Shown one piece after another: positions 3,520-43,391 of a stretch of 43,391 nucleotides of DNA. Each line of letters starts with the position of its first letter. The first letter of the stretch is position 1. The notes under the pieces were generated by a model. It made no database searches and was not told the origin of the DNA. It saw only the letters and a list, made by a program, of their open reading frames with translations. Both the position numbers and the translations under genes were made by a program. The DNA is taken from positions 1 to 43,391 of the forward strand of contig JAZGHU010000037.1 of assembly GCA_036481345.1 (NCBI GenBank), written 5' to 3'. Origin of the DNA: Candidatus Woesearchaeota archaeon. Lineage in GTDB: Archaea; Nanobdellota; Nanobdellia; Woesearchaeales; WJKL01.

Positions 3520-3771
3520 ATGGCAAAAAGAAAAATTAAAATAGTGATAAAGAAGCACATCCTAATGCCAAAACACATTAAGTTGTCTGTAAAGGAAAGA
3601 GCTGTTTTATTCGAAAACTATCATATTTCTGTTAAAGAGCTACCTAAAATAATGAAAGATGACCCTGCTATTGTAAGTTTACATGCAAAAGAAGGAGATG
3701 TTATCAAGATAGTTAGGCAAAGTCCTACTGCTGGAGAAATTGAATTTTATAGAGGAGTTATAAGTGAATAA
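3520..3771 (+). CDS. rpoH: DNA-directed RNA polymerase subunit H (Rpb5 C-terminal domain homologue)
   Basis: 83 aa. HILMPKHIKLS..., PKIMKDDPAIV, GDVIKIVRQSPTAGE..FYRGV is typical RpoH. First gene of the conserved archaeal RNAP operon. Confidence 0.9.
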   Translation: MAKRKIKIVIKKHILMPKHIKLSVKERAVLFENYHISVKELPKIMKDDPAIVSLHAKEGDVIKIVRQSPTAGEIEFYRGVISE

Positions 3772-23830: not shown

Positions 23831-24102
23831 TTCTTAACAAGCACCTCTTTTTTATCATATTTACATTCCCAGAATTGCAGAAATTCTTCTACTTCTTTTG
23901 CAAACTTTGAAGAAACAAGCATAACAGCCCTTCCCAGCTGTTCAATTTTATATTGTTTTACAATCCCACTTTTGCCATCTCTTCCCTTCATGGCATAGTA
24001 GAATCTTATCTTGTCTTTTTTCAGCAGATGTTGAGTAGAATAACTAAATAAAAACTTAGAATCATACTTCTTTTTGTCTATTACTACTTCTTTTTTAACC
24101 AT
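23827..24102 (-). CDS. Hypothetical 91-aa protein, translationally coupled to the 1641-aa gene
   Basis: ORF track. ATGA stop/start overlap at 23827-23830. No family recognised (KIRFYYAMKGRDGKSGIV...). Confidence 0.6.
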   Translation of the reverse strand: MVKKEVVIDKKKYDSKFLFSYSTQHLLKKDKIRFYYAMKGRDGKSGIVKQYKIEQLGRAVMLVSSKFAKEVEEFLQFWECKYDKKEVLVKK

Positions 24103-24124
24103 TATTTCAACATCAGGATAAAAA

Positions 24125-24144
24125 AGAAGTCTGTTGAACTTGTT
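24125..24144 (+). repeat. Copy 2 of the exact 20-nt repeat AGAAGTCTGTTGAACTTGTT
   Basis: Identical to 12610-12629. Lies 23-42 nt upstream of the minus-strand ATG at 24102, so it is transcribed there, if at all, as the reverse complement. Confidence 0.8.
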
Positions 24145-24306
24145 TCAACAATACCTCTTTTCCCACACTATATACCTTATGTTAAATAAGTTAACAAGTT
24201 TAGTATATAAATGTTTCTATGTTATATAGGTTAACAGAGAATAAGACGAGAGAAATTTTTCAAGAAGAAATCCTTATTCTATCATATAACCTTATTTTTA
24301 AGGTTT

Positions 24307-27389: not shown

Positions 27390-30300
27390 TTATGTTCCTC
27401 CTTTTTTTAGATAAACTTCATCTATCTTATCATCAATTTCTTGATTCATACGTTCAAGTTTTACTCTTCTTAATCTTAATCTTGCTAAGGCTGTGAGCTC
27501 ATATCCATAGTACGCGCCTGCACCAAGTAAACTCAAGACCAGGATAGCTAATATACTTACACCAATTCCTGTCCAAGGAATCTTGATATCTCCGATAGAG
27601 ATAACAGTGGCTCCTGTTGGTCCTACTACTGATATGATTGTTGCTGCATTTGCATAAGCATTTTTGATTAGATTTCTTGCATAATCAAATCTGCCAAATG
27701 CTATATTTTCTTCTGCTTTCTCAAGTGACTCTTTTAATTCATCAAGCAGTTCTTCTGCTTCTCCTGTTGCTAATCCTTCTTCTTTTAACTCGCTAATCTT
27801 ATTCTCTAATTGGATTACTTTATTTTCAAGTGTGATTACATCTTTTTTCAGATTAGCTGGAATCTGTTTTATTGCTATAATGCATCTTAACCAGCTTTCT
27901 CCAATGCCATCTCCATCGCAATCATAACCACAATCTACTATGCATTCCTGGAATCTTTCTTTTGTTTCAGTTGAACTGCATATGTTATCTCCACAAACAA
28001 CTTCTTCAGCAGCCCCAGTTCCTCCTGTTGATCCTCCTGTTGATCCTCCTTCATCTGATGGTGCAGTTACTTCAAAGCTTGATGTAGCATTGGCAGTAGC
28101 TGTTGGCCACACTATTTCAGAGGATAAATAATAAGTTCCTGTTCCACTAGGTGCTGTTAATGTTACACTTGTAGTTAATGATGAATTCCTGCCAACATAA
28201 ACAGTCCTTATATCAATATCATAGACAGTTCCGTCTGCATCCTTAATCGTTGTTGTCAGCCATCTGTCTTCAGCAATCTCTGGATTTTGATTGATCAACT
28301 CAATCTCTGCTGTAATAGTATTTCCTTGCTCTACTGAACTTGGAATGCTTGTAATAATAACATCAAATGGTCCTCCATAACCAGGGATTGTAATGCTTGG
28401 CTGATTAGAGTAGGATATATCTCCACTTGCTGAAGCCCTTGTCTTGACAAATGTCTCAGTATGTGTCTGAGGATTCTTCTGTATTATTATGTAAGCGCTT
28501 GTCTGCCATGACTCTCCTTCTGTCAGATTTATCTGTGTATCTAATTCAATATCAGTATCAGTAACTTCAATATCTTCTAAATCAATCTCTCCTGAATTAA
28601 CTACCTCAATCACAATCTGATAAGTTACATTTGTTGTTGTTTGATTCTGATAGATCAGGTTCTTGATCAAAGTCAATTGATTCAATGTTTCATTTTCTGG
28701 GATAACAATTAATGGCTGATTAGATTCAGCAAACAAACTATTATCATAAACAGCATCATAACCACTAACATTTGATTTATTTAGAGTAACAGTATAAGCA
28801 TCACTTCCTCTTGTATAAGTTAAGAGATAACTTCTAGTAACTGTTTCTGTTATTATATTGCCTAATTCCCATGTTTGACTAGCATCTTGGTCAGTCAAAT
28901 TAGTTGATTCTGAAGTTCCTCTTAAATTAGTCAATATATTAGAGATATTATACACAATTGTAGTATCATTTAAGCTTTGGACAGTTGGCAATTTATACAG
29001 AGTTAGCTCAGCTTCTTGGTTATCTGCTAACAAGAACATTGTGCTATTTGTAAATGTTCCACTATGATAATAAGTTTTTGAAGCATTAATTCTTACATCA
29101 TAATAATTAGGTCTTTGCATACCTTCTGTATTCATAGTGCAATTATAATATCCACCACCTAGATCAGTTGTATTAGTGCAGGTATAGGAGTATGTATCAT
29201 AGATAGGTTCAAAAGTTATTGTTGCTCCTCCTATTGCATTGCTTAATTCATCATAAACATAACCTTGGAAAGATATATCTAATCCTTCATAAAATATCAC
29301 AGGAGGTGCTTCATTAGGCAATAGCGAATAAGCACTTAATGTTCCATAAACAGTTGTTGTAATATTTATCTCAGTTGAAACACTTGTATCACTGTTTGAA
29401 GTTGCTGTTATATTAACAACATACTCTCCTACTGTATCATCATCTGTTACAGTAAGAGTTACATTTTGATTTTCATCAACTCCAAGACTTACTGAAGTCT
29501 GATTTAACACAGCTGTTGAAGCAGAGTTTATATTGTTCAGAGTTAAATTATAAGTATCTGCTCCTGTTCCCTCATTTGTTATTGTAATTGTATATACTGC
29601 ATTTACACTTCTGTCTGTATCTTGATCAGCTGGATATGTTACTGACACTCCTCTGGTGTCATTTACAATTATATTTCTTATTTCACTGAATGAACTGTTT
29701 TGATATGAATCTCCTGCTTTAACTTTCCAATAATTGTTTTGTAATTGGTTTGGAGTTAAGGTTAAGGTTGTCCAGTTGTAACTTGTTGCTGTTCCATTAT
29801 AGATCAGTGTTGTTGGATCTGCATTTGTGTCTCCATATACATAATAAGTAATTGTATCATTATCTAAATCACTTGATGTATACCACAATAACATTGTTGT
29901 TCCTGTAGTTGTTATGTTATCTGAAGGAGATAACAATGTAGGTGTAGCAGGAATATTATTTCCTAACTCATGAGTTTCAGGAGTTGTATTTACTGTTTCC
30001 ATGCTGTCATTACATACAATATACATTTCAATTGTATCAAGAGGAGTATATCCATCTGCTTCTGAGATTGTTGCTGTCTTTGTAGTTGTTCCAGTCATTG
30101 CCTTATTATCATAACCACCAGTCTCTCTATGATATAATATACAACTTATATTCTGGCTTGAATCAGCATCAGTTGGACTGACTGAGACATCAAAAGAATG
30201 TCCATTATAATCAACATAACTTAATGAGCCAATACTTATTAGATTATTAATGAAAACTTGAGTTGTTCTTACATCTTGAGTATTATTTGCTCCATCTACT

Positions 30301-33300
30301 GAATAATATTTCAGATAATTAGTTCCTCTTATATCAAACTGCACTGTATCCAGGTCATCAATCAGAGTTTCTGCTGAACATGTATTTGTGGTATCATTGC
30401 AATAATAAGTTGTGATTAGTGTTGCATTTGGAAGGTCTTCTTCATGTATTGTTACATCGTGTCCTGGCAGTTTTATATAACCATCATAATCATCATAGGT
30501 TGTTGGAACTGTCCAATCTACTCCAAAGCTTACATCAATATTCTGTCCAGTTGTCTGCTCATTTCCATATTGATCCTGGCATGAGATATAATAAGTAGTG
30601 CTTGCAACTTGTGCTACATCTCCAAGATTACAATTAATACTTCCATTTGAAACACTGCAATCATTACTCATGCTGCTATAAACTACATCTGATGTTCCCC
30701 ATCTGCACTGTGCTCCTGTTTCTGTTGTAGCTGCTAATATTGTTTGTGAATTATTTGATGTATCCCAATATGGCGCACTAGTATCACCATCTACAGATAC
30801 TATGTTTGAATCTGGAGCAGTTAAATCAATTGTAAAGCTTACACTTGTTGAATTCACATTTCCATAACTATCATTAGCCCATGCATAGATTGTATGTCCT
30901 CCTTCAGAGAAATTCCTATATAAAGATGAAGTGTAAGTCTCATTACCTGATCCACTATTAAACCAAACATCAGTTGCTCCTGCTGAAGATATATTAATCA
31001 ATACATTAACACCGTAAGTTGTAGCTTGCGGACTAATAATCCACATATCTGGAACACCATCATAATCACACACTAATGTCTGATTATCATAACTTCCATT
31101 ATCAATACTACAATCAGAACCTAATCCAGTAACTACACAACATGTTGCATAATTATTATCCACATAATAATTATTTAACCTGTCAGATGAATTACAGCTT
31201 GTGTTAGTTGGTCCTTGTATATCTTCAGTACAATAATCACAGCTAAATGTTTGATTAGCAGGAGGATTATTATCTGATTCTAATCCTGTTATAGCATAAC
31301 AATCATTTGTATCATTATACCATTGTGTTTTATTATCTGCTGTATTACAAGAAGTATTGATTGCTGTCCAGCTTGGTGTACAATAATCACAAGCAGAAGA
31401 TTGGTATTCCCAATAAGTATTATTATTTCCTGAATTCCATAAGTCTGAACCTAATCCAGTTACTGCATAACATGTGTTATAATTTTCATCATATTCTATT
31501 CTGCTTCTGTTTTGATCTTTTGTATCATTCAAATAACATGCACTTGAATCCTGCCAGCCTGTCCAAGTTGTGTTGACAACTGAATAACTGCAATAGTTGC
31601 ATCCAACTGCCTGATACTCATAATATGTTGAATTTGCTGCACAACTGTATAAATCATATTGTGTTAAATTTCTTTCCTGCTCTGTCGTATCATTAACTAA
31701 ACAAACGCTTGTATTATACCATGCTGTCCAAGATGTATTCAGATAGCTTGGACCCACTAATTGATATTCATAATAAGTAGTGTTTCCAATCTCTCCACAA
31801 CTATTATTATCATACTGAGTTCTTTCTCTACTCTGATTCATCTCATCTCCACTACAGCTTAGATTGCTCCAACTGCTCCAACTAGTGTTGATCATATTTG
31901 GTGTACAATAATCACAAGCAGCTGCTTGATATTCATAGTAAGTTGTATTTCCAACCTCTCCGCAATAATTATTATCATACTGTGTTAAATTCCTTTCTTG
32001 GTCTACTGTATCATTAACATAACACGCACTAGTATTATACCAAGAAGTCCATGATGTATTTGTTAAGCTTGGAGTACAGAAATCACAGAAACTTGTATTC
32101 TGGTATTCAACAAATGTTGAATTTGATGCACAACTATAATCATCATATTGAGTTAGGTTTCTTGTCTGATTCATTGTATCACTTGGCAGACAAGTAATAT
32201 TCAACCAGCTTGTCCATGAAGTATTCAGATAACTTGGACCTACTAATTGATATTCATAATAAGTTGTATTTCCAATCTCTCCACAACTATTATTATCATA
32301 TTGTGTTCTTTCTCTGCTTTGATTCATCTCATCTCCACTACAGCTTACATTACTCCAACCACTCCATGAAGTATTCACCATATTAGGAGTACAATAATCA
32401 CAACTTCCAGCTTGATATTCATAATAAGTTGTATTGCCAACCTCTCCACAACTATTTGAATCATATTGTGTTCTATTTCTTTCTTGATCTATTGTATCAT
32501 TCACATAACACGCACTAGTATTATACCAACTTGTCCATGAAGTATTTGTTAAAGATGGTGTACAATAATCACAGAATGTTACATTTTGGTATTCAATATA
32601 AGTTGTATTTCCAACCTCTCCGCAATAGTTCTGATCATACTGTGTTCTATTCCTGGTCTGGTTCATTGTATCACTCGGCAGACAGCTAATATTCAACCAT
32701 GATGTCCATGAAGTGTTTGCTAAACTAGGTGTACAATAATCACAGAAACTTACATTCTGATATTCATAATAAGTTGTATTTGCTGCACATGAATAATCAT
32801 CATACTGTGTTAAATTCCTAGTCTGGTTCATTGTATCTGATACTAAACAAGATATATTTAACCAACCACTCCAACTAGTATTCAGATAAGTTGGACCAAC
32901 TAATTGATATTCATAGAATGTACTATTGCCAATTTCTCCGCAACTATTATCATCATACTGAGTTAATTCTCTACTCTGGTTCATTTCATCTCCACTACAA
33001 GTTAGATTACTCCAACCACTCCATGAAGTATTTACCATATTTGGTGTACAATAATCACAAGCAGCTGCTTGATATTCGTAATAAGTTGTGTTGCTAACTT
33101 CTCCACAATAATTAGTATCATATTGTGTTAAGTTTCTAGTTTGATCAATTGTGTCATTTACATAACAAGCACTTGTATTATACCAACTTGTCCATGAAGT
33201 ATTTGTTAAAGATGGTGTACAATAATCACAGAAACTCACATTCTGATATTCAATATAAGTTGTATTAGATGCACAACTATATTCATCATATTGTGTTAAA

Positions 33301-36300
33301 TTTCTTGTCTGATTCATTGTATCGCTTGCTAGGCAGGAGATATTAAGCCATGAAGTCCAAGAAGTATTTTGATAATTTGGACCCACTAATTGATATTCAA
33401 AGAATGTTGTATTTGCTCCACCACATTCATTCTGGTCATATTGTGTTAAATTCCTGCTTTGATTCATTTGACTTCCAGCACAAGTGAAATTAATCCAAGC
33501 TGTCCAAGAAGTATTTGTTAGACTTACATTGCAAGGCGGCCCATGACTGATAGTCAAATTAGAACCTTTTGTAAAGTAAGAAGAGTAAGTATTGGTGCCA
33601 CTAATGTCTATTGCTCTTGCTCTTAAATCAATTCCTGTTTGCTCTGCCAGAGCAGTAGTATTCCAAGTAAAGGCAGCAGTCTCAGTATGATTTCCAATAT
33701 TACTCCAACCACTTCCACTAATAGTAATGAAAACATTTGTGTAATTTATTTCATCTGCAACTGAACCATTGTGGTCCATGTACCGGCCCATTATTCTTAG
33801 ATCCTGGTTTGCTTGAGTCTGCCATGCAGTTAGAATACTTGCATCTGTTGTAGATAATGAGAAATTATAATTTGTTGTATCAAGTCCAGTTCCTGTATAT
33901 GTTGCAGGCAGGCTGAAATTGCCTATTTCAATAAACTCGCTTCCATTGTACACTTCAAGCCATAAGTCAGGATCATTTGTTCCTTGGTCAACAGAAGCTG
34001 AAGGATTATAAGAATCAACTTCAACCTTTATAGTGATATTATTTATACTGTTCTGGTCTGAGGATACATCTGTATAATCTGTATAAGTTGTATTTGTTTC
34101 ATTTGAAGCTCCTCCTCCACCAGCAGATACTGTTATGTTGTCCAATGATGCATCACCTTGATAACCAGATGCATGCACATGCCTAAATCTAAGCCCATAA
34201 TCGTTTGCAGGGGATTGTGCGTCTAAATCAATAGTTACTTCTTTCCAATCAGAAGTCTCTGCTGTTTGATCTCCATCTTGACCTACCTGAGACCATAGTG
34301 AAGTCCAGCTACCAGAGGCATTCCATTCAAGGTATAGTGTTCCAAGCGCAGACCCATACATATGATACCAGAAAGTTATACTTGAATCACTACTATCTTT
34401 ATCCAAAACAAATGCTGATTCAGTACTACAATCTGTTCCTTCACATTCAGTTCCAGTAGAAGTTTCTGTAAAGATAAAATTATTACCGCCAGTTACAGTC
34501 CCACCAACCGAACCCCCAGAAGGACCAGTGGTACCAGAAGGGGTTGTAGCTGCACAAGTCCAAAAATTAGTATTATCAGAAGTCCAATTAAGGACATCAT
34601 TATTATAATTTGCACACGATTCATCGTCAAAATTTATTGTATATGTTGCGGCTTCACCAGCACCACCTTCTACTGCCATGCTCACATCAGTTCCATCACT
34701 AGCTGATGTTGAACTTGATAAACTTGCTTCAATCACATAAGTGATATTATCTCCATCAGCATCTGTTGAACCAGATGCATTCAGGTCCACAGAAGTATCA
34801 ACTGTAATATTGCAATTATTGCTTCCATCACAAGTTATGTTTGTTGGTGTTGTTGGAGCAGTGTTTGGGATCTGTTCAGCTCCAAAAGTTACTAAACTTC
34901 CTTGATTAACAACAATCTGATAAGTCATATTTGTCCAATCAGCAGAACGAGGGGTATCGGAAACACGAATTTCATCAAGATTACCTGTGAAGTATCCTGG
35001 ACCTGATGCTGCATTAGCTCCAATACCTAACCACCAATCACCGGGCCATTGTTTATCCTGTGTTGCACTATTTTGTTCTACACCATCAACATAACCCCTT
35101 ACTGTGTTATCTGCATTATCAAATGTCATCACCACGTGATACCAATTATTCAAACTGTATGTTGTTCCTAAACCCAGTGTATAATGTGAGCCACCATAAT
35201 AACCCACATTAATTGTATTTGTGCCTACAAATGACATTAAAACAGCGTGCCAACCTGATGATGGAGTTTGTTGCCCTTGTTCAGCAAATACTACACCAGC
35301 AGCAGTTGGATAAATCCATGCTTCTAATGTAAAACTTGCCGGTGTAGTAGTTATATCCCTATATATATAATCATTTGAGCCATCAAAATCCAAAGAACCA
35401 TCAACCTTTCCATCTTCTTGGTCGCCTGAAGTCATAGAACCAGCAGATGTAGCATTATTGTTATTTGTGCTATCTTTCATCTGTGGTGCAGTATCAGATG
35501 GATCTTCGTCCATGTGTTGAACCATCTTATAATTACTATCCCAAACACCAGCTGGATTTTCTCCTGAACTTACTGCTGTATCATTCTTATAATAAACAGA
35601 AATTACTGTTCCTGCAGAAGGAAGAGAAGGTATTCTTGCCCATATATGTGCACTACTTCCGTCCGAACTTTCTATCTCATAATCCATTAAACTTCCACCA
35701 TCTCCACAAGAAGCATTGTAGAATCTTAAATCAACATAATCTGGCTGCATATCTGAATCATATGTTAAATTGATATAGGCTGGGAAGTTTGTAAGTGTTG
35801 AAGTACCTGCATTGCCTATAGTTATATCCATACATCTGTCAAAGGTTGCATTTGCCCATTCTCCAAATCCAGGATCTTCTGGTGTTAAAGTAAATGTATA
35901 ATCTTGTCCAGGAACCAATCCAGTCTTGAATAATACCCAATCTCCAAAGCAAGTTTGTGTACTAAAGTTCCAATCTTTACATTTATACAATTCAGTTCCT
36001 TTTGCAGTTACTGTAACAGTTGCATTTGTAAAGTTAAGATTAGTTGGATCAATAGCATATACTTCTACATAATTAGTTCCTTCTTCAGGAACATCATCTA
36101 TCCTAATGTCATCAACAAAATCCTCATAAATTTCCATGTCTTTGTATTCAACAGATTTAACAGGATGTTTTTCTAATTTAACTTTAACATTATATTCTCC
36201 TTCTTCAACTAGTTTATTCTTTTCTCCTTTTACTTTTTTATCTTTGACCTCTTCAGTCAAACTATCTATTAATTCAATCTCTGCAACAATAGTAGTATCT

Positions 36301-38195
36301 TTACTATCTTTAACTTCTGCTCCTAAATTTATCTCTTCAGCAACACCAAATTCAAATGCTTCAGTATGTTCTCCAACTAAGATTCTAAATCTCTTATTAT
36401 TCCAATTATTAACAATAAGAGTTACATTCTCTCCTGCAGTTGAAACATTTTGACTCAGTTCATAATCTACTCTTCCTTTTACAAATAGTGGAATAGATTC
36501 AACAGAATCATGATGGAATACAACAGTCAATGTATCTGTTATATTGTCATGCACAACAGAATCAATTACAGCATCATAGCTTGGATCTTCTTTTATCTTT
36601 GTATAGAATCCTTCAAGCACTGTTTCATTAAACTCTTCAGATAGATTATGCAATACATAATCAACTTTGTTAATCTCCAGCACTCCAGAATCTAATTCAA
36701 ATACAACTTTATAATCAGTATCACCCAATCCAGGAGGTAATATACATGTCTCTGAACAAACAGTTGAGAAATCAATCTCCTTAATCTCCACAGCTTTATC
36801 AGGATCAAACACAACAGTCTTTGAATTGATTATCAAAGTTGTTTCATCTTTAATCCTTACTCTAACTCTTCTCTTTGTATCATCAGAATAACTAAAGTGT
36901 GTTTGTATTACAACTTCCTGTTCTCCTACATCAAGTATTTTCTCCTCAGCTATCTCCAAAACATAAGGCTCTTCATATCCTTCAACATCTAATACTAGAT
37001 AACCAATACCAACAGACTGATTTTCCTTATTATCAATAGTAAGAACAACTTCATTTATTGTTCCCCATGATTTCTTCAACACATGATGGAACTCAACATC
37101 CTTAATCTTAACATGTTTATATTTCTCTAATGGTACAATATCTTCTATTAGCTCTTCTTCAACAACAGGTTCTTCTGTAATGTTGACTTCTTCAACAGGC
37201 TCTTCTATGATATCTACTTCCTCTGTAATATTAGTTTCTTCTTCTGTTACATTATCAACAACATCAGTGACATTAACTTCTTCAGTTGCATTGTCCACAG
37301 TAATGTTTGTTATAGTTATGTTATCAGTAATATTTACATCTTCAGTTAGGTTAATCTCAGTAGTGTTTATTTCTTCAGACACATTGGTCTCTTCAGTTAA
37401 ATTAATCTCTTCTGTGATGTTCACTTCTTCTGTAATGTTAACTTCTTCAGTAACATTAACTTCTTCAGTAATGTTTACTTCCTCTTCAATCTCTTCTGTG
37501 ATATTCTCTTCAACTACTTCTTCCACTTCCTCCCCAATAATTTCTTCCGCTTCAATTTCCTCTGTAACCTCAACTGCCCCTTCAACTTCCTCTTCAAGAA
37601 TTTCCTCTCCTTCCTGCTCAAGTTCTTCATCTTCTTCTACTTCCTCAACAACTTCTTCCTCATACACCTCCTCTTCCTGCTCTTCAACTTCAGTTATTTC
37701 ATAATCTGGCTCAGCTTCTTCAGGCATTGGTTCTTCTTCAATAAACAATCCAGTTATTCCAGACAAATCTTCCTTAGCAATTGTTTCTTCATCCAAGATT
37801 AAGAATCTGTTTCCATTATCATCTTCAAGATAAGCTTTAACTGTTCCATTGCCAACATAACTTCCACTCAATCTAAACGTTCTCAGATCAAATGCTTCCA
37901 AATCTTCATCTATATTAAATCCATATTCTGCATCTGCATCCATTGTCCAGCTAACATTTTTTTCATAAGCCAATAAACCCTCTTGAGATAAGAAGTATCC
38001 TGTAATTCCAGGAGCTAAGAAATATATTGCTGTCATCAATAACATGATTACAAAGAATACTATGAAAGCAGGAGATTTAATAAAACTCATTAAAGGCTTT
38101 TTCTTTCCACTAAATATTGGTTTAATGTTCAATCCATTGAATGCTGGAGCTGCCTTAAAGCTTCTATTTCCTTTGATTTTTATTTTATTTTGCAT
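27390..38195 (-). CDS. Giant surface protein (3601 aa): N-terminal anchor, acidic NxTEE stalk, DUF2341-like + LamG-like + MAM-like domains, ~13-15 Cys/Trp-rich tandem modules, many Ig/FN3/CARDB-like domains, Cys-knot, coiled coil, C-terminal TM anchor
   Basis: Uninterrupted 10.8-kb ORF. TM FIVFFVIMLLMTAIYFLAP. LDFDGSNDYI...FTLEAWIYP...WYHVVMTFD (LamG_3-like). MDITIGNAGTSTLTNFPAYINL...IWARIPSLP (DUF2341-like). ITFWYHMYGSALGTLYLEW...GDASLDNITV (MAM-like). C-terminal IGVSILAILVLSLLGAGAYYGY. Confidence 0.9.
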   Translation of the reverse strand: MQNKIKIKGNRSFKAAPAFNGLNIKPIFSGKKKPLMSFIKSPAFIVFFVIMLLMTAIYFLAPGITGYFLSQEGLLAYEKNVSWTMDADAEYGFNIDEDLEAFDLRTFRLSGSYVGNGTVKAYLEDDNGNRFLILDEETIAKEDLSGITGLFIEEEPMPEEAEPDYEITEVEEQEEEVYEEEVVEEVEEDEELEQEGEEILEEEVEGAVEVTEEIEAEEIIGEEVEEVVEENITEEIEEEVNITEEVNVTEEVNITEEVNITEEINLTEETNVSEEINTTEINLTEDVNITDNITITNITVDNATEEVNVTDVVDNVTEEETNITEEVDIIEEPVEEVNITEEPVVEEELIEDIVPLEKYKHVKIKDVEFHHVLKKSWGTINEVVLTIDNKENQSVGIGYLVLDVEGYEEPYVLEIAEEKILDVGEQEVVIQTHFSYSDDTKRRVRVRIKDETTLIINSKTVVFDPDKAVEIKEIDFSTVCSETCILPPGLGDTDYKVVFELDSGVLEINKVDYVLHNLSEEFNETVLEGFYTKIKEDPSYDAVIDSVVHDNITDTLTVVFHHDSVESIPLFVKGRVDYELSQNVSTAGENVTLIVNNWNNKRFRILVGEHTEAFEFGVAEEINLGAEVKDSKDTTIVAEIELIDSLTEEVKDKKVKGEKNKLVEEGEYNVKVKLEKHPVKSVEYKDMEIYEDFVDDIRIDDVPEEGTNYVEVYAIDPTNLNFTNATVTVTAKGTELYKCKDWNFSTQTCFGDWVLFKTGLVPGQDYTFTLTPEDPGFGEWANATFDRCMDITIGNAGTSTLTNFPAYINLTYDSDMQPDYVDLRFYNASCGDGGSLMDYEIESSDGSSAHIWARIPSLPSAGTVISVYYKNDTAVSSGENPAGVWDSNYKMVQHMDEDPSDTAPQMKDSTNNNNATSAGSMTSGDQEDGKVDGSLDFDGSNDYIYRDITTTPASFTLEAWIYPTAAGVVFAEQGQQTPSSGWHAVLMSFVGTNTINVGYYGGSHYTLGLGTTYSLNNWYHVVMTFDNADNTVRGYVDGVEQNSATQDKQWPGDWWLGIGANAASGPGYFTGNLDEIRVSDTPRSADWTNMTYQIVVNQGSLVTFGAEQIPNTAPTTPTNITCDGSNNCNITVDTSVDLNASGSTDADGDNITYVIEASLSSSTSASDGTDVSMAVEGGAGEAATYTINFDDESCANYNNDVLNWTSDNTNFWTCAATTPSGTTGPSGGSVGGTVTGGNNFIFTETSTGTECEGTDCSTESAFVLDKDSSDSSITFWYHMYGSALGTLYLEWNASGSWTSLWSQVGQDGDQTAETSDWKEVTIDLDAQSPANDYGLRFRHVHASGYQGDASLDNITVSAGGGGASNETNTTYTDYTDVSSDQNSINNITIKVEVDSYNPSASVDQGTNDPDLWLEVYNGSEFIEIGNFSLPATYTGTGLDTTNYNFSLSTTDASILTAWQTQANQDLRIMGRYMDHNGSVADEINYTNVFITISGSGWSNIGNHTETAAFTWNTTALAEQTGIDLRARAIDISGTNTYSSYFTKGSNLTISHGPPCNVSLTNTSWTAWINFTCAGSQMNQSRNLTQYDQNECGGANTTFFEYQLVGPNYQNTSWTSWLNISCLASDTMNQTRNLTQYDEYSCASNTTYIEYQNVSFCDYCTPSLTNTSWTSWYNTSACYVNDTIDQTRNLTQYDTNYCGEVSNTTYYEYQAAACDYCTPNMVNTSWSGWSNLTCSGDEMNQSRELTQYDDNSCGEIGNSTFYEYQLVGPTYLNTSWSGWLNISCLVSDTMNQTRNLTQYDDYSCAANTTYYEYQNVSFCDYCTPSLANTSWTSWLNISCLPSDTMNQTRNRTQYDQNYCGEVGNTTYIEYQNVTFCDYCTPSLTNTSWTSWYNTSACYVNDTIDQERNRTQYDSNSCGEVGNTTYYEYQAGSCDYCTPNMVNTSWSGWSNVSCSGDEMNQSRERTQYDNNSCGEIGNTTYYEYQLVGPSYLNTSWTSWLNITCLPSDTMNQTRNLTQYDDYSCASNSTFVEYQNTSFCDFCTPSLTNTSWTSWYNTSACYVNDTVDQERNLTQYDNNYCGEVGNTTYYEYQAAACDYCTPNMINTSWSSWSNLSCSGDEMNQSRERTQYDNNSCGEIGNTTYYEYQLVGPSYLNTSWTAWYNTSVCLVNDTTEQERNLTQYDLYSCAANSTYYEYQAVGCNYCSYSVVNTTWTGWQDSSACYLNDTKDQNRSRIEYDENYNTCYAVTGLGSDLWNSGNNNTYWEYQSSACDYCTPSWTAINTSCNTADNKTQWYNDTNDCYAITGLESDNNPPANQTFSCDYCTEDIQGPTNTSCNSSDRLNNYYVDNNYATCCVVTGLGSDCSIDNGSYDNQTLVCDYDGVPDMWIISPQATTYGVNVLINISSAGATDVWFNSGSGNETYTSSLYRNFSEGGHTIYAWANDSYGNVNSTSVSFTIDLTAPDSNIVSVDGDTSAPYWDTSNNSQTILAATTETGAQCRWGTSDVVYSSMSNDCSVSNGSINCNLGDVAQVASTTYYISCQDQYGNEQTTGQNIDVSFGVDWTVPTTYDDYDGYIKLPGHDVTIHEEDLPNATLITTYYCNDTTNTCSAETLIDDLDTVQFDIRGTNYLKYYSVDGANNTQDVRTTQVFINNLISIGSLSYVDYNGHSFDVSVSPTDADSSQNISCILYHRETGGYDNKAMTGTTTKTATISEADGYTPLDTIEMYIVCNDSMETVNTTPETHELGNNIPATPTLLSPSDNITTTGTTMLLWYTSSDLDNDTITYYVYGDTNADPTTLIYNGTATSYNWTTLTLTPNQLQNNYWKVKAGDSYQNSSFSEIRNIIVNDTRGVSVTYPADQDTDRSVNAVYTITITNEGTGADTYNLTLNNINSASTAVLNQTSVSLGVDENQNVTLTVTDDDTVGEYVVNITATSNSDTSVSTEINITTTVYGTLSAYSLLPNEAPPVIFYEGLDISFQGYVYDELSNAIGGATITFEPIYDTYSYTCTNTTDLGGGYYNCTMNTEGMQRPNYYDVRINASKTYYHSGTFTNSTMFLLADNQEAELTLYKLPTVQSLNDTTIVYNISNILTNLRGTSESTNLTDQDASQTWELGNIITETVTRSYLLTYTRGSDAYTVTLNKSNVSGYDAVYDNSLFAESNQPLIVIPENETLNQLTLIKNLIYQNQTTTNVTYQIVIEVVNSGEIDLEDIEVTDTDIELDTQINLTEGESWQTSAYIIIQKNPQTHTETFVKTRASASGDISYSNQPSITIPGYGGPFDVIITSIPSSVEQGNTITAEIELINQNPEIAEDRWLTTTIKDADGTVYDIDIRTVYVGRNSSLTTSVTLTAPSGTGTYYLSSEIVWPTATANATSSFEVTAPSDEGGSTGGSTGGTGAAEEVVCGDNICSSTETKERFQECIVDCGYDCDGDGIGESWLRCIIAIKQIPANLKKDVITLENKVIQLENKISELKEEGLATGEAEELLDELKESLEKAEENIAFGRFDYARNLIKNAYANAATIISVVGPTGATVISIGDIKIPWTGIGVSILAILVLSLLGAGAYYGYELTALARLRLRRVKLERMNQEIDDKIDEVYLKKGGT
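31070..33536 (-). repeat. In-frame tandem array of ~13-15 Cys/Trp-rich modules (~50-57 aa each) with a 3-module super-repeat
   Basis: Consensus CDYCTPSLTNTSWTSWYNTSACYVNDTIDQxRNLTQYDxNYCGEVGNTTYYEYQ. Modules with and without the CDYCTP prefix alternate. The last 3 modules are degenerate. Confidence 0.9.
37170..37510 (-). repeat. Imperfect 18-bp (6-aa) tandem repeats encoding N-[IVL]-T-E-E-[VI]
   Basis: Protein reads ENITEEIEEEVNITEEVNVTEEVNITEEVNITEEINLTEETNVSEEINTTEINLTEDVNITDNITITNITVDNATEEVNVTD... The + strand shows repeated gtaaYRttaacttcttca units. Confidence 0.8.
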
Positions 38196-38721
38196 TCTTT
38201 TTCATTGCACGATTATAGACAGTCCATATTGTCCTTTCATTTCTTTGCAGTAATTCACCAATTTTATGATAAGAAAGTTTGAAATTTTCTTTGAGATAAA
38301 CAACAACAGCTTCAAGCAGACTTAATTTTGTCCTCAAAGCAGAAACAGGGATGTTATATTCAGTTTCAGCAGGAGGAATAACATCAGAATATTTTTTCAT
38401 TGCATTTTTATGAGCCTGCCACACTGTCTTTCTATCCCTTCCAAGCATCTTTGCAATCTTTGTAAAATCAATATCCAAATTTTCTTTAAGATATTTAACA
38501 GTTGTTTCCAAGGGACTAAGTTTTTTAATAAAAACAGTGCAAGGGATCATAATATCTTCTTGGATAAAGTTCAAGACATCTGTTGTAGAAATATGATACT
38601 TTTTTTTCAGTCGTTTTAATAAGATCTTAAAAACAGCAAAATCTTCATCTTGATAAAGTTTAGAACTATCAAATTCTCTAGATTTCTGTGTAAAACCCGC
38701 TCTAATGCCTCTCTTTTTCAT
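38185..38721 (-). CDS. Tandem-duplicated helix-turn-helix (sigma-70 region 4 / LuxR-like) DNA-binding protein
   Basis: 178 aa with two similar halves: LSPLETTVKYLKENLDIDFTKIAKMLGRDRKTVWQAHKNAMKK and LSLLEAVVVYLKENFKLSYHKIGELLQRNERTIWTVYNRAMKK. Stop overlaps the start of the 3601-aa gene by 11 nt. Confidence 0.7.
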   Translation of the reverse strand: MKKRGIRAGFTQKSREFDSSKLYQDEDFAVFKILLKRLKKKYHISTTDVLNFIQEDIMIPCTVFIKKLSPLETTVKYLKENLDIDFTKIAKMLGRDRKTVWQAHKNAMKKYSDVIPPAETEYNIPVSALRTKLSLLEAVVVYLKENFKLSYHKIGELLQRNERTIWTVYNRAMKKNAK

Positions 38722-38734
38722 TACTTTTACTGTA

Positions 38735-39029
38735 ATTTAAGTATAATTATCTATATATGTAAGTAATGACTATATAAATATTATTGTTTTTTAGTACATA
38801 TGTAAGATATATGCCTATTAATGTAAGTAATAATAACCTTAAATGTAAGTAACAAATATACAAAATAAGATACTCTCTCTTTATATGTAAGTATTTAGAA
38901 CTTTAATGTCAGTATTGATATCCATATATTGTATCATATTATGTAAGTATTTAGCTCTCTATATGTAAGTATATACTTCCCTATACTTCCATATATGTAC
39001 AAAAGCATAGAAATATTTATATATAAGTA
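38735..39029 (+). repeat. Phased array of ~10 direct copies of ATGTAAGTA in the divergent intergenic region (iteron/operator-like)
   Basis: Exact copies start at 38757, 38821, 38843, 38885, 38941, 38963. Variants start at 38735 (ATTTAAGTA), 38800 (ATGTAAGAT), 38906 (ATGTCAGTA), 39021 (ATATAAGTA). Spacings are 22, 43, 21, 22, 42, 21, 35, 22, 58 nt. All copies are on the same strand. Confidence 0.8.
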
Positions 39030-39045
39030 TACACATTTGTATACT
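39026..39045. promoter_or_regulatory. Palindromic operator-like site AGTATACA-catt-TGTATACT immediately upstream of the RHH ORF
   Basis: Perfect 8-bp arms (39026-33 / 39038-45), ending 2 nt before ATG 39048. Overlaps TATA-like ATATTTATATATAAG (39013-39027). Confidence 0.5.
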
Positions 39046-39047
39046 CA

Positions 39048-39203
39048 ATGAGTAAAAATGAGCAGAGTGATAAGCAAAAAGTAACTTTAAGCATAGATTC
39101 TAAAACTTATAAACAATTTCAAGACCATTGCGAAGAAAACGCAATAATGCTTTCTAAAAAAATAGAATTATTCATGAAAAAAGAATTAGAGGAGACTAAG
39201 TGA
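39048..39203 (+). CDS. 51-aa ribbon-helix-helix (CopG/Arc/MetJ-like) protein, not in the ORF track
   Basis: Hand translation MSKNEQSDKQKVTLSIDSKTYKQFQDHCEENAIMLSKKIELFMKKELEETK. Pattern of a beta-strand (KVTLSID) plus two short helices. Size typical of RHH repressors. Confidence 0.55.
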   Translation: MSKNEQSDKQKVTLSIDSKTYKQFQDHCEENAIMLSKKIELFMKKELEETK

Positions 39204-39234
39204 TACTTACGAACAAAGTGAGGAAGGTTTGGAA

Positions 39235-42200
39235 ATGAAATTTCCAAAAAAGAAAAAAGGCGTTTGGATTAAGACAGCAATCATCTTAGCTCTTGCTTTA
39301 TTAGCCTCAAGTTTAGTTTCTGCTGAGACTGCAAACCTCACATCAGCAATTTATAGCGGAGGAGATAAACTTTCAGATGTTTCAGCAAAAGATGATTCTT
39401 ATTTCTTAGCAGACATGAAAGATGTTGCTAAGGGATTCTACTTAAATTTCTCATCAGATCTAACTAATGGTTCAACATTGAATGTCTTTGCTAAACAAAC
39501 TACAGGAATCACAATAGGAATATATGCACAATCAGACACATCAGGAACAACTCCTCTTGGAACATTTTCAATAACTTCTGGAACAGGAGATTGGTATAAT
39601 ACAACTTTAGATATTTCAACTCCAACAAATGGAATCTGGTTAGGAGAAGGAACTGGCTCTGGACAGAATCCTAAAGATGAATTTGATTTCTTTAGTGCCA
39701 CAATCCCTTCAGCATGTACTGCAAACTTAACAAATACCTCTTGGTCATCATGGACAAATATAACTTGCTTAGCAAACGACACAATGAATCAATCTAGAAA
39801 CTTAACTCAATATGATGCTAATGTTTGTGGAGGAGCTAATACAACATTTACAGAATATAGAGCAACAGAATTCTGTGATTATTGTACTCCTTCATTAACA
39901 AACACATCTTGGACATCATGGTATAATACAAGCAGCTGTTATGCAAATGACACTATAGACCAAGAGAGGAATCTTACTGAATATGATGGCAATTATTGTG
40001 GAGAAGTTAGCAATAGCACTTACTTTGAATATCAGACAGCTGCATGTGATTATTGCACACCCAACTTAATTAATACGTCTACAGCCTGGACTAATATTTC
40101 CTGCCTTGTATCAGATTTGATGAATCAAACAAGAAATACAACTCAGTATGACAATAATTACTGCGGAGAAATAGCAAACCAGACTTTTGTAGAATATCAA
40201 GCAACAGAATTCTGTGATTATTGCACTCCAAGTTTAATAAATACCTCTTGGACAGAGTGGTATAATTTAACAGGGTGTCAAGCTAATGATACAGTTCTGC
40301 AGGAAAGAAACTTAACTCAGTATGATTCAAATAGTTGTGGAGAAGTTGCTAATACAACATTTACAGAACAGCAATCTGTAGCATGTGATTATTGCACCCC
40401 CTCATTAACAAATACATCATGGAATTCATGGTTAAATATTAGTTGCTTGTCAGATGATACTATGAACCAAAGTAGAAATCTGACTCAATATGATACAAAT
40501 AGTTGTGGAGAAATTGCTAATCAAACATTCATAGAATACAGGAATACAGAAGCATGTGATTATTGCACACCTTCATTAACAAACACATCCTGGAGCAGTT
40601 GGAATAATATATCCTGTCTATCAGACAATACTATGAACCAGTCTAGAAACTTAACACAATATGATTCAAATAGTTGTGGAGAGATTGCTAATCAAACTTT
40701 TACAGAGTATCAAAATATAGAAGCATGTGATTATTGTACTCCTAATTTATTGAATACATCATGGACAGCGTGGTATAATTTAACAGGATGTCAAGCAAAT
40801 GATACTGTTCTGCAGGAAAGAAACTTGACTCAATACGATAGTAATGTTTGTGGAGAATTTGCTAATCAGACATTCACTGAGCAGCAATCTGCAGCTTGCA
40901 TTTATCAAGTGAATATTAATGAAACAGTTGAAGATGCTTCAAGCAATCCAATAAATACAACAATAATCATAATTGATGAATCTGATAATTCAACAGTATA
41001 TAATCAAACAGCCAATTCCCACAACTTAAATGTAGATCATAATAAAGAATACACAATTAGAATTGTCCCTCAAAACAATAAAATAAAAGAAATTGAATTC
41101 ACTAATGTAAATATAACAGAACCATTAAATCAGATTATAGACATAGATAATCCAGCAGATAACCAAGGCTATATTGATCTTTATGCAATCAATCCATTGA
41201 TTAACTTAAGTCCAGGACAAACATTTACAGTTACAGTTACAGCATCTGCAACTTCAAATGTTCTTTACAAATGTGTTGATTGGAATTTCACATCAAGAAC
41301 ATGTGAAGGAACTTGGATATTGTCTAAAATAATCAACCCAGGACAAGATTACATTATAACTTTAAACAGCACAGACCCAGGATTTGGAGAAGATAATATT
41401 ACTGCGAACCTTACTTCAGCAATACATGTTGGATCTGATGTACTTAGCTTCTTAATTTCAAAAGATGACAATTATTATTCAGCAGATGTGAAAGATGCTA
41501 GTAAGAAACTTTATCTTAACTTCACTCATAATATAACTAATCAAAGTATATTGAAAATTTATGCTAAACAAGTTAATGGAATTACAGTAGGGATATATGC
41601 ACAATCAGATACATTAGGAACAACTCCTTTAGGAAATTTTACAGTAACTTCTGGAACAGGAGATTGGTATAATATAACCTTAGATTTATCCACAGAGACA
41701 AATGCAATCTGGTTTGGAGAAGGAACAGGTTCAGGAACAGATCCAAAAGAAGAATTTGATTATGTCTATGTAGAGATATTCATCGCAAATAGCCTGCCTA
41801 ACTCAACAACCCCAATAATAACACCTGCAACAGCATATACCAATAACAACTTAAATTGTACATTTACAGTAACAGATGAGGATAATGACAGTTTAAGTGT
41901 TAATTACACTTGGTATAATGGCTCAACTCTAGTAATAACAGGAACAATGAATGTAACAAATGGAACTCTGACTTCAATAAGTTTAGGAAGTGCAAATACT
42001 TCAAAAGGAGAAACATGGAATTGCTCAATTATTCCATTTGATGGTATAGCTTATGGAATAGAAAAAAGCATAACAAAAACAATTCAAAACTCTTTACCAA
42101 CATCCCCTATAATAGATTTACTTCCAAACAATCCAAATGCAGATCAAGATTTAGTAGCATCAATAACTTCATCAAGTTCAGATTTAGATAATGATACAAT

Positions 42201-43391
42201 TACTTATTCATATGAATGGTATAAAAATAATATATTACAACCAGGATTAACAACAAATACAATATCACATGTATTAACTACAGCAGGAGAAATATGGAAA
42301 GCAGTTGTAACTCCTAATGATGGAGAATCAGATGGCGCAACAGGAGAAGATAATGAAACAATAGTAGGAGTTCCACCTCAAACATCTAATATTAAATTAA
42401 TGTCTCCAATCAATCATTATATAATAACCTCTTCAACAACTGTTACATTCAACTATAATGTATCAAATAATGTTACAAATTGTTCATTGGTAATAAATGG
42501 AACAGTGGATCAAACAAATACTAACATAACTCCAAATACAACAGAAACCTTCACAAAAACTTTAGCAAATGGAGATTATAATTGGTCAGTAGAATGTACC
42601 AATCCAGATAATTCAACAAACAGCTCAATAACCTGGGACTTCACATTAGATTATACTGCTCCTGTAAAGAAAAGTGGTGGAGGAGGAGGAAGCTCTTCTG
42701 CTCCAGTTATAGTAGAAGAATGTTTAGAAAGCTGGACATGCACATCTTGGTCTGATTGTGCTAATGATCAACAGACCAGATTATGCTTTGACTTTAATGA
42801 ATGCGGAACAGAAACATTAAAGCCAGAAGAGATTAGATCTTGTGAAGCTAATCAGAATAATGGAGATGGGCTGGCTGAAAATGAAACAAAAGGTTCTGGA
42901 ATACCTTCTATAACAGGAGAAGCTATCAAGGTTCTGCCATATAAGGGACCTAATCCATATTACTTACTGCCAACAATCTTGTTATTGATAATATTCATAA
43001 CACTGACTGCTCTCAAGAAATCACATCTATCTAAAACTAAAAAGAAAGTGATAACTACACTTCATATAACTTTGGCTAGTCTTATATTGATATTATTTGT
43101 ATCATCTTTTATCAAGAACCTGCCAATAGGAGCACACATAGCAGAGATAACTGAAACAGCAAATGTTCCTATGAAGACAATAATAATAGTTATAGTAGGG
43201 GTGGCTTTTGCTATGGCTGCTTTATCAGCAACTCTTCTTTTTGTAGAAAAGAATAAAATCATGAATATTCTGAAGAAACGAAATAGTGGAAAGAGAAAAA
43301 GGAAAGAGATAAAAAAGATGGAAGCAAAAAAAGTAAAACCAAAGAAAATCAAGCCGAGATTAGAACACCATAAAATAAAGATGGATATGAT
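39235..43391 (+). CDS. Giant surface protein, >1385 aa, 3' end outside the window; paralogous to the 3601-aa protein
   Basis: Frame 1 is open from ATG 39235 (GAGG at 39220-39223) to the window end, checked by hand translation; absent from the ORF track because no stop is reached. Signal peptide MKFPKKKKGVWIKTAIILALALLASSLVSA. Seven CDYCTP...W..W modules. Duplicated ~125-aa N-domain. GGGGGSSS linker, Cys-knot ECLESWTCTSWSDCANDQQTRLC, then TM helices. Confidence 0.88.
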   Translation, partial: MKFPKKKKGVWIKTAIILALALLASSLVSAETANLTSAIYSGGDKLSDVSAKDDSYFLADMKDVAKGFYLNFSSDLTNGSTLNVFAKQTTGITIGIYAQSDTSGTTPLGTFSITSGTGDWYNTTLDISTPTNGIWLGEGTGSGQNPKDEFDFFSATIPSACTANLTNTSWSSWTNITCLANDTMNQSRNLTQYDANVCGGANTTFTEYRATEFCDYCTPSLTNTSWTSWYNTSSCYANDTIDQERNLTEYDGNYCGEVSNSTYFEYQTAACDYCTPNLINTSTAWTNISCLVSDLMNQTRNTTQYDNNYCGEIANQTFVEYQATEFCDYCTPSLINTSWTEWYNLTGCQANDTVLQERNLTQYDSNSCGEVANTTFTEQQSVACDYCTPSLTNTSWNSWLNISCLSDDTMNQSRNLTQYDTNSCGEIANQTFIEYRNTEACDYCTPSLTNTSWSSWNNISCLSDNTMNQSRNLTQYDSNSCGEIANQTFTEYQNIEACDYCTPNLLNTSWTAWYNLTGCQANDTVLQERNLTQYDSNVCGEFANQTFTEQQSAACIYQVNINETVEDASSNPINTTIIIIDESDNSTVYNQTANSHNLNVDHNKEYTIRIVPQNNKIKEIEFTNVNITEPLNQIIDIDNPADNQGYIDLYAINPLINLSPGQTFTVTVTASATSNVLYKCVDWNFTSRTCEGTWILSKIINPGQDYIITLNSTDPGFGEDNITANLTSAIHVGSDVLSFLISKDDNYYSADVKDASKKLYLNFTHNITNQSILKIYAKQVNGITVGIYAQSDTLGTTPLGNFTVTSGTGDWYNITLDLSTETNAIWFGEGTGSGTDPKEEFDYVYVEIFIANSLPNSTTPIITPATAYTNNNLNCTFTVTDEDNDSLSVNYTWYNGSTLVITGTMNVTNGTLTSISLGSANTSKGETWNCSIIPFDGIAYGIEKSITKTIQNSLPTSPIIDLLPNNPNADQDLVASITSSSSDLDNDTITYSYEWYKNNILQPGLTTNTISHVLTTAGEIWKAVVTPNDGESDGATGEDNETIVGVPPQTSNIKLMSPINHYIITSSTTVTFNYNVSNNVTNCSLVINGTVDQTNTNITPNTTETFTKTLANGDYNWSVECTNPDNSTNSSITWDFTLDYTAPVKKSGGGGGSSSAPVIVEECLESWTCTSWSDCANDQQTRLCFDFNECGTETLKPEEIRSCEANQNNGDGLAENETKGSGIPSITGEAIKVLPYKGPNPYYLLPTILLLIIFITLTALKKSHLSKTKKKVITTLHITLASLILILFVSSFIKNLPIGAHIAEITETANVPMKTIIIVIVGVAFAMAALSATLLFVEKNKIMNILKKRNSGKRKRKEIKKMEAKKVKPKKIKPRLEHHKIKMDM
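39715..40895 (+). repeat. Seven in-frame tandem Cys/Trp-rich modules (~56 aa, ~168 bp), same family as 31070-33536 but on the opposite strand
   Basis: For example CDYCTPSLTNTSWTSWYNTSSCYANDTIDQERNLTEYDGNYCGEVSNSTYFEYQTAA. Shares exact DNA runs with the minus-strand array, such as aattattgtggagaagttagcaa. Confidence 0.9.

Follow-up and report, generated by a model that had tools for sequence, protein, structure and literature searches.

A helically phased array of directional 17-bp sites, most likely the operators of an adjacent double-helix-turn-helix protein, in front of giant surface-protein genes of a Woesearchaeota-type archaeon

The 43,391 bp of Candidatus Woesearchaeota DNA analyzed here (contig JAZGHU010000037.1; the whole stretch is called the window below) contain a 326-bp spacer (38722-39047) in which short direct repeats are arrayed between the open reading frame (ORF) of a 178-aa protein with two helix-turn-helix (HTH) units (38185..38721, minus strand) and that of a 51-aa probable ribbon-helix-helix (RHH) protein (39048..39203, plus strand). 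We read this array as the set of cognate operator sites of the adjacent 178-aa HTH protein, a reading to which the sequence evidence leads us to give a probability of roughly 0.7. The repeats are conserved among relatives, run in one orientation, are helically phased, hold a set position at the promoter and accompany the HTH gene from species to species, and one half of the repeat unit (box B) varies together with the helix of the protein's first HTH unit (HTH1). Most likely these are operators for an uncharacterized family of regulators, encoded ahead of genes for giant surface proteins in numerous DPANN archaea of tiny size. Woesearchaeota, like other DPANN archaea, have yet to be cultured; their genomes are very small, and they are believed to live attached to hosts. 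Contact with the host is a task for which their giant surface proteins are leading candidates, and no account of how the genes for these are controlled was found in the literature searched.

The repeat array and its 17-bp unit

The 9-mer ATGTAAGTA occurs in six exact copies within 215 bp (38757-38971), all on the plus strand and starting at 38757, 38821, 38843, 38885, 38941 and 38963, and both strands of the window are otherwise free of exact copies. Chance would supply about 0.5 exact copies per strand over the whole window and about 0.005 in the spacer at its own composition. Four degenerate copies lie at 38735 (ATTTAAGTA), 38800 (ATGTAAGAT, two mismatches), 38906 (ATGTCAGTA) and 39021 (ATATAAGTA), and the distances from copy to copy are 22, 43, 21, 22, 42, 21, 35, 22 and 58 bp. 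We thereby reproduce the inventory of a first-pass annotation of this DNA, which had listed six exact and four near-exact copies in one orientation with these spacings, together with a tandem TATACTTCC pair at 38972-38990 and the word TACTTAC at 39204-39210, both of which are present as described. The copies from 38735 to 38906 share a helical phase (0.92-0.11 of a 10.6-bp turn), and the pair at 38941 and 38963 is turned by about 0.4 of a helical turn from the others. The 39021 variant and the TATACTTCC pair, which it had counted in the array, fit instead a set of boxes of the RHH type, described below.

All six exact copies share a conserved C 6 nt upstream of the 9-mer on the plus strand, equivalent to a G at position 14 on the strand of the HTH gene, and this G is found in none of the degenerate copies. 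Since the exact copies alone share it, the real unit is 17 bp long. The same two-part structure appears when 178 sites of the family are aligned: they read (A)TACTTACAT, followed by a second conserved position, the G at +14, which is present in 98 of them. The 17-bp site is therefore bipartite, with box A at positions 0-7 (TACTTACA) and box B at about 11-16, the centers of the two lying one helical turn apart.

The window has six full sites of this kind, all reading on the minus strand. S1 (TACTTACATATATAGAT, 38749..38765) begins 5 nt past a predicted TATA box and is the predicted promoter-proximal operator; upstream of it come S2 (TACTTACATTAATAGGC, 38813..38829), S3 (TACTTACATTTAAGGTT, 38835..38851; 22 bp from S2), S4 (TACTTACATATAAAGAG, 38877..38893), S5 (TACTTACATAATATGAT, 38933..38949) and S6 (TACTTACATATAGAGAG, 38955..38971; 22 bp from S5), the last of these being the site nearest to the RHH promoter, with its edge 44 bp from the TATA box there. 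Three degenerate half-sites, also on the minus strand, are interspersed: TACTTAAAT (38735..38743), which follows S1 at 22 bp and would fall within the 5' leader of the HTH mRNA; ATCTTACAT (38800..38808), in phase with S1-S4; and TACTGACAT (38906..38914), 21 bp from S4.

The TATA box predicted from sequence for the HTH operon, TTTATATA at 38771..38778 on the minus strand, is preceded by an A-rich stretch resembling a TFB recognition element (BRE). Because of the usual archaeal distance from TATA box to start, transcription would begin near 38748, which would place S1 at about -17 to -1. The first-pass annotation had the first copies overlapping TATA-like sequences upstream of the HTH ATG, and one site does overlap the predicted promoter of that operon. 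This placement recurs across the family: 44 of 61 loci have a site that follows the end of a canonical archaeal TATA octamer by 3-6 nt (mode 5), the octamer itself coming after A-rich, BRE-like sequence.

Three syntenic loci from other genomes (L002, L003 and L006), whose HTH proteins are 82, 74 and 66% identical to that of the window, share its layout of giant gene, small ORF, spacer, HTH gene and another giant gene. All three have retained the array in an otherwise drifted spacer, which answers a check proposed at the outset, namely whether close relatives with the same flanking genes had lost the repeats. The position of S1 is kept in these loci and in most distant ones, and the half-site at 38735 reads ACTTAAAT or ACTTATAT in the three relatives. 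An insertion in L003 has brought a 140-aa gene between array and small ORF, leaving the array next to the HTH gene and a block of TACTTCC boxes and TATA box next to the small ORF.

For the wider family, an alignment of the HTH protein was scanned against one genome per species, which gave 177 loci, 80 of which were fetched; the family counts given here rest on 82 or 83 HTH loci from different species. On the HTH strand, the 600-bp stretches upstream of the HTH genes of 82 loci contain 173 copies of the core TACTTAC (3.7 per kb), against 47 copies in the remaining 522 kb of these loci (0.09 per kb); the opposite orientation is seen only 11 times upstream. The three commonest upstream 7-mers, ACTTACA, TACTTAC and CTTACAT, rank above TATA-box words, and when only non-coding DNA is compared, the core reaches 7.8 per kb upstream and 0.63 per kb in the rest of these loci; together with the lack of further copies in the 43 kb of the window, this bears out the expectation that an operator motif should be concentrated here. 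At least one site is present in 61 of 83 loci, at least two in 47 and at least four in 27.

Spacing between adjacent sites follows the helix in the family as it does in the window. Distances peak at 21-22, 32, 42, 53 and 63-64 bp, with 10-11 bp absent. The strongest period is 10.5 bp, where R reaches 0.63 as compared with 0.29 at most among 2000 random sets, and this signal persists when the window's own clade is left out. Only 2 of 145 spacings fall below 17 bp (12 and 16 bp), and the smallest of the others are 20-22 bp. Spaced in this way, the sites share one helix face, and overlaps between them are very rare.

Linkage of the HTH gene to what lies downstream of it is also widespread. In the large majority of loci, a big ORF begins within a few nucleotides of the end of the HTH gene, usually with an overlap of 4-11 nt, and in more than 20 loci that ORF exceeds 1300 aa and reaches the end of the locus. 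The divergent neighbor of the HTH gene is not conserved across the family.

The double-HTH protein and the co-variation of its first helix with box B

In the 178-aa protein, a helical segment at the N-terminus is followed by two tandem units (residues ~57-112 and 122-178), each made of a strand and three helices. Pfam profiles for HTH_23 (31.7 bits, cut-off 24.6) and Sigma70_r4_2 (28.6 bits, cut-off 25.7) match it, best over residues 132-175 and more weakly over the first unit, and no AraC-type HTH (HTH_18 or HTH_AraC) was found in it at E-values up to 0.1. Its two halves are 44% identical (E 2e-16). An AlphaFold 2 (AF2) model reaches block-mean pLDDT values of at least 90 over residues 61-178, and a Foldseek search with this model returned 1rio_H, sigma region 4 on DNA (root-mean-square deviation [rmsd] 1.2 Å over 48 columns, probability 0.99), as well as 8jzt_A, region 4 of SigF (rmsd 1.5 Å), and the C-terminal domains of RcsB. 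Whole-query E-values in that search are weak (0.02 or above) because only one unit aligns; none of the solved structures that it returned corresponds to the protein over its full length (best whole-protein TM-score ~0.25), and a sequence search of the PDB with the family profile found no meaningful relative. The protein is a tandem duplication of domains of the sigma-70-region-4/LuxR type. Annotation of the family amounts to an automatic 'sigma-24' label in one source; neither family nor motif is described in the literature searched on DPANN or Woesearchaeota giant or surface proteins and such HTH proteins, and a paper on archaeal LuxR solos does not treat the double-HTH family.

The two units of the protein vary to very different degrees, and so do the two boxes of the site. 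The helix of unit 2, R-[ND]-[DE]-R-T-I-W-T-V-Y-x-R, is essentially invariant, belonging to class WTV in 62 of 62 loci, and box A is TACTTACA in 56 of these. The HTH1 helix falls into several classes, each with its own box B: KT[VI]WQA[HY], the class of the window, whose own helix reads KTVWQAHKN, goes with A.AGA, RNIWH[IT]Y (WHI/WHT) with AAyGTAT, RTIWTT (WTT) with TAwGTA, and IALAV[TS]Y (AVT/AVS) with TATAT, which lacks the G. Where HTH1 carries the same helix as unit 2, RTIWTVYNR (L080, L063 and L038), box B is TGTAAGTA, that is, an inverted box A. HTH1 class and box B are associated at positions 11, 13, 14 and 15 (p <= 4e-4 in a locus-level permutation uncorrected for phylogeny). Read most simply, this co-variation points to a single-chain pseudo-dimer that sits on a pseudo-palindrome, one head and one half-site of which would have evolved together; a pseudo-dimer with diverged half-sites also explains why each site has a direction.

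Loci in which the two helices are alike (L080, L063, L038 and L051) have perfect or near-perfect palindromes upstream, of the form TACTTAC-N3-GTAAGTA. In L080 (about 3520-4000), all seven sites are palindromic, reading (T/C)ACTTAC-N3-GTAAGTA or ending in -GTAGGT. Palindromic sites paired with like helices look like the ancestral state of the system. Four genomes hold two HTH loci each (L010/L053, L011/L013, L046/L086 and L070/L084), and three of these four pairs combine copies of different HTH1 helix classes, which suggests that paralogues within a genome have half-sites of their own.

Mechanism and alternative readings

Under the operator reading, the 178-aa chain would act as a covalently linked pseudo-dimer, one molecule to each 17-bp pseudo-palindromic site. 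Its invariant C-terminal HTH would read the invariant half TACTTACA (ATGTAAGTA on the plus strand), and the diverged N-terminal HTH the weaker half one turn away, in the window A.AGA with the G at position 14. With its two halves different, every site is directional, and all point the same way as the HTH gene. S1, which separates the TATA box from the predicted start of the operon formed by the HTH gene and the 3601-aa giant gene after it, would when occupied block recruitment of RNA polymerase, resulting in negative autoregulation and in repression of the giant genes, which would be co-transcribed and translationally coupled. The five full sites upstream and the half-sites, spaced on one helix face by 21-22 bp or by higher multiples of 10.5 bp, probably take up additional molecules in side-by-side contact, perhaps through their N-terminal helices, and we infer that such contacts would make occupancy of S1 cooperative and switch-like. 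S5 and S6, whose nearer edge is the one that lies 44 bp from the divergent TATA box, may also influence the RHH operon.

That operon has what appears to be a control module of its own (38974..39029, plus strand), which is kept in L002, L003 and L006. It comprises TACTTCC boxes at 38974-38980 and 38984-38990, within the TATACTTCC pair (38972-38980 and 38982-38990), a GAAATA at 39010-39015, a TATA box TTTATATA at 39016-39023 and a TAAGTA at 39024-39029. As the TATA box is 32 nt before the ATG of the 51-aa ORF, a nearly leaderless mRNA beginning near 39046 is predicted. Counted from the TATA start, 63 promoters of the RHH family have peaks of TAYWTC boxes at -16, -26, -36 and -46 and of inverted GAWRTA boxes at +8 (18 of 63), -6, -12 and -22; these boxes have a 10-bp period and often form 16-bp palindromes such as TATTTCTATAGAAATA. 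The 51-aa RHH protein probably binds the TACTTCC pair, GAAATA and TAAGTA that surround its TATA box, and such TAYWTC/GAWRTA boxes probably serve in its autoregulation, so that the spacer would consist of two adjoining modules, HTH array and RHH boxes.

The RHH assignment itself is probable, its profile matches being weak though consistent. The family is very conserved, with an invariant KVTLS strand, and 37 of 39 members match DUF6364 (E up to 0.01), 8 RepB-RCR_reg and 1 CcdA, the best profile E-value in the family being 5.5e-6; the window's own protein scores 17.6 bits against DUF6364, below the cut-off of 27.3. Its best PDB match is the RHH regulator SvtR (protein 56B, 2kel) of the archaeal virus SIRV1, a weak one (E 2.2), the AF2 monomer is one long helix and uninformative on an RHH dimer, and an exact look-up of the protein in a contig index, where the gene is uncalled, gave no match. 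In seven loci (L107, L114, L120, L139, L145, L158 and L162), an RHH-like segment lies in an open frame of more than 1000 codons, and these may be fusions of RHH and giant proteins or frame artifacts.

The first-pass annotation had taken the array for a multi-site operator bound cooperatively by the 51-aa RHH protein and controlling both divergent operons. The part that stands is the multi-site operator, as a conserved, phased element in a divergent control region; RHH as its binder we now consider improbable. The adjacency and strong conservation of the RHH gene speak for such binding, as does the AAGTA/TACTT core that RHH-type boxes share with the array. The word GTAAGTA is also one half of 16-bp palindromes (TACTTCTATGTAAGTA) in some RHH promoters; we rejected it as evidence of RHH binding to the array, since there it is half of a TACTTC...GAAGTA-type palindrome with a different partner spacing. 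Linkage argues the other way: some 55 loci have arrays upstream of the HTH gene with no RHH gene detected by tblastn within the up to 4 kb covered on that side, and an RHH gene was found by that search near only 6 of 83 HTH loci. Conversely, among 80 RHH loci from metagenomes, only two have an HTH gene within about 3 kb, the remaining 78 having none, and core 7-mers upstream of the RHH genes never exceed three and are absent in 56. Nor do the geometries agree, as the boxes in RHH promoters have a 10-bp period and just 2 of 145 spacings between array sites are below 20 bp, and box B follows the HTH1 helix while the RHH family is nearly invariant. Less probable still is a replication or segregation element (iterons, a centromere, or sites like origin recognition boxes) or a core-promoter element of the basal machinery, of which the iteron and centromere options had also been raised. 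Unidirectional, phased short repeats do resemble iterons and parC-type centromeres, and one copy at a fixed distance from the TATA box is reminiscent of a promoter element; yet the window is chromosomal, several genomes carry two or more HTH loci, array orientation is fixed to the HTH gene (173 of 184 upstream matches), and most copies have no TATA box, while box B co-varies with an HTH helix. The window ORFs that were scanned yielded neither an Orc1/Cdc6 nor a Rep domain, ParA and ParM not being specifically sought in them. The multiplicity of loci, the fixed orientation and the TATA-locked site led us to set the iteron and centromere options aside. A scan of IMG/VR returned no relative of the HTH family on viral contigs, which also leaves a viral origin of the family unsupported.

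A more serious competitor keeps the double-HTH protein as the binder and makes it an activator or dual regulator, the upstream sites forming an enhancer-like platform that recruits TBP and TFB while S1 limits output; its target could be the HTH/giant operon, the divergent RHH operon or both. Five of the six full sites are upstream of the BRE and TATA box, in the region bound by archaeal activators; giant genes that extend over 22 kb may require strong induced transcription; and S5/S6 lie the 44 bp noted above from the RHH TATA box. Against it, only one position is conserved family-wide, that of the site which 44 of 61 loci have 3-6 nt past the TATA box, where archaeal repressors usually sit, and the divergent neighbor of the HTH gene is unconserved, so that control of a second operon is not a general role. 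Archaeal repressors commonly act by occupying a site downstream of the TATA box, and the site found there in the window argues for repression. We regard such an activating or dual role as possible and lean, by a modest margin over even odds, toward repression.

Several observations weigh against the reading that we prefer, in which the array is the operator of the double-HTH protein and serves repression. Binding by the HTH protein is a deduction from sequence, and the promoters and starts are predicted from consensus; the five sites upstream of the promoter would suit an activator or dual regulator equally well; and the significance of the co-variation is inflated by related loci, whose shared ancestry is uncorrected. 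The exact core word is absent in 22 of 83 loci, several of which have coding DNA upstream, are truncated or carry variant or inverted sites. Finally, roughly one RHH promoter in four contains a single GTAAGTA or TACTTAC word, and the AAGTA/TACTT half-site of the RHH boxes shares its core with box A; given this common TACTT core, limited cross-binding between the two box sets is conceivable.

Two further kinds of site deserve mention. In L026, L027, L028 and L040, which lack the exact core, TACATATATAATAAGTA-type sites stand straight after the TATA box in the last 60 nt before the HTH start; these are the pseudo-palindrome in opposite orientation, with TACTTAT replacing TACTTAC. A possible extra HTH-type site in the window, TACTTACGAACAAAGTG at 39204..39220 on the plus strand, has box A and the G at position 14 and lies between the RHH stop and the start of the giant ORF, oriented along transcription. 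L006 is identical over about 27 nt from the ACTTAC of this site onward, including a GAGGAAGG stretch that resembles a ribosome-binding site, and the same HTH protein may act here within the RHH operon.

Giant-gene setting and comparison with known systems

The window is AT-rich (33% G+C) and belongs to the chromosome of a Woesearchaeota-type (DPANN) archaeon. It contains a cluster with split rpoB, rpoA' and rpoA'', NusA, S12 and S7, as well as genes for Spt5 and L11, and homologues of the genes flanking the array are labelled Candidatus Woesearchaeota, Nanoarchaeota or Nanoarchaeia. Rfam finds only two tRNAs in the window and nothing within the spacer (38722-39047). The tRNA genes (2866-2992 and 3358-3479), upstream of the rpoB cluster, are 122-127 nt long and presumably contain introns.

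The right half of the window consists of very large genes for membrane-anchored proteins. The presumed regulated cargo of the array is the 3601-aa giant protein of the ORF list (27390..38195, minus strand), whose ORF start overlaps the stop of the HTH gene by 11 nt; it has hydrophobic segments at both its N- and C-terminus, and a Pfam scan of it gave no match. A 965-aa ORF (24491-27388, minus strand) follows after a single nucleotide, and further minus-strand ORFs of 1641 and 887 aa come after it. In the 18905-23830 region of that strand, the 1641-aa protein has five Cu-binding_MopE motifs (E 6e-34) and a CARDB-like domain and the 887-aa protein has beta-propeller-like matches, which is consistent with secreted or surface proteins. 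On the plus strand, the RHH gene is the leader of an operon with a giant surface-protein ORF of at least 1385 aa (39235..43391), rich in N-glycosylation sequons, that runs past the end of the window. A third unit of leader and giant gene may begin with a 91-aa ORF (23827-24102, minus strand) that has no Pfam match and whose stop overlaps the ATG of the 1641-aa ORF; upstream of it (region 23827-24290, minus strand), a TTTATATA box is flanked by two GTTAAC-containing repeats, much as RHH locus L087 has an array of GTTAAATAGGTTAAC-like repeats, and ORF and repeats may be another regulator/operator pair on the same theme.

With the double-HTH gene, the RHH gene and the 91-aa ORF, the window thus has three candidate leaders. 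A speculative extension, which we think unlikely, is that each giant surface-protein operon of such episymbiotic archaea is headed by a small DNA-binding leader of its own, and that, with private operators for paralogues and phased arrays making each switch cooperative and bistable, a cell could express its giant adhesins one at a time or in variegated fashion. If so, double-HTH paralogues in a genome would have kept the TACTTACA half in common and diversified one head together with the other half of the site, and the system would be an archaeal, transcription-factor-based counterpart of surface-antigen choice.

Whatever its regulatory sign, the family is widespread, with 177 loci among species-representative genomes, and comes with a 17-bp recognition code whose natural pairs of helix and half-site can be tested without culturing the organisms. 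The motif could also be used to locate regulated giant-gene operons in metagenomes. What appears new is the combination of a fused double unit, a co-evolving half-site, unidirectional phased arrays and a frequent association with giant surface-protein operons of DPANN archaea, features not found together in the literature searched.

Short repeats beside a small RHH gene are familiar from RHH operators and centromeres (omega heptads, ParR/parC, ParG, CopG, Arc/Mnt, and SvtR of SIRV1), and the boxes at 38974-39029, with their 10-bp period and overlap with the RHH gene's own promoter, fit that pattern; the ATGTAAGTA array differs in being unlinked to RHH genes across genomes and in having 17-bp sites that are, with rare exceptions, at least 20 bp apart. 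Among archaeal autoregulators, Ss-LrpB of Sulfolobus has three regularly spaced boxes and MDR1 of Archaeoglobus three operators, and LrpA, Phr and TrmB-type repressors bind downstream of the TATA box. The array resembles these systems in its multiple sites within the regulator's own control region, in repression between TATA box and start and in cooperative filling of one helix face, the last two as proposed here, whereas the known proteins are winged-helix dimers of the Lrp/AsnC, DtxR and TrmB types that bind palindromes, typically at one to three sites, and are unlinked to giant surface-protein operons.

Along with Ss-LrpB, MDR1 and their like, the closest functional analogues are MarA, SoxS and Rob, AraC-XylS family monomers that bind an asymmetric 'marbox' and activate by contacting bacterial RNA polymerase. 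They share with the proposed system the use of one chain with two HTHs in successive major grooves, an asymmetric site of about 17-20 bp and the importance of how that site is oriented to the promoter. The resemblance does not go beyond function: the folds differ, as the 178-aa protein has no AraC-type Pfam match and its units are sigma-region-4/LuxR-like, and here the setting is archaeal, the duplication is still recognizable (44%), a pseudo-dimer would sit on a pseudo-palindrome, and the sites form phased arrays. In fold, by Pfam and Foldseek, each unit is instead akin to LuxR/GerE/NarL proteins and sigma-70 region 4, which work as homodimers on inverted repeats or as the part of a sigma factor that binds the -35 box. 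The 178-aa protein differs from them in having two copies fused, in having no receiver or ligand domain and in half-sites that have diverged along with one helix, and it would represent a homodimeric HTH turned single-chain pseudo-dimer, useful for the study and design of DNA-recognition specificity.

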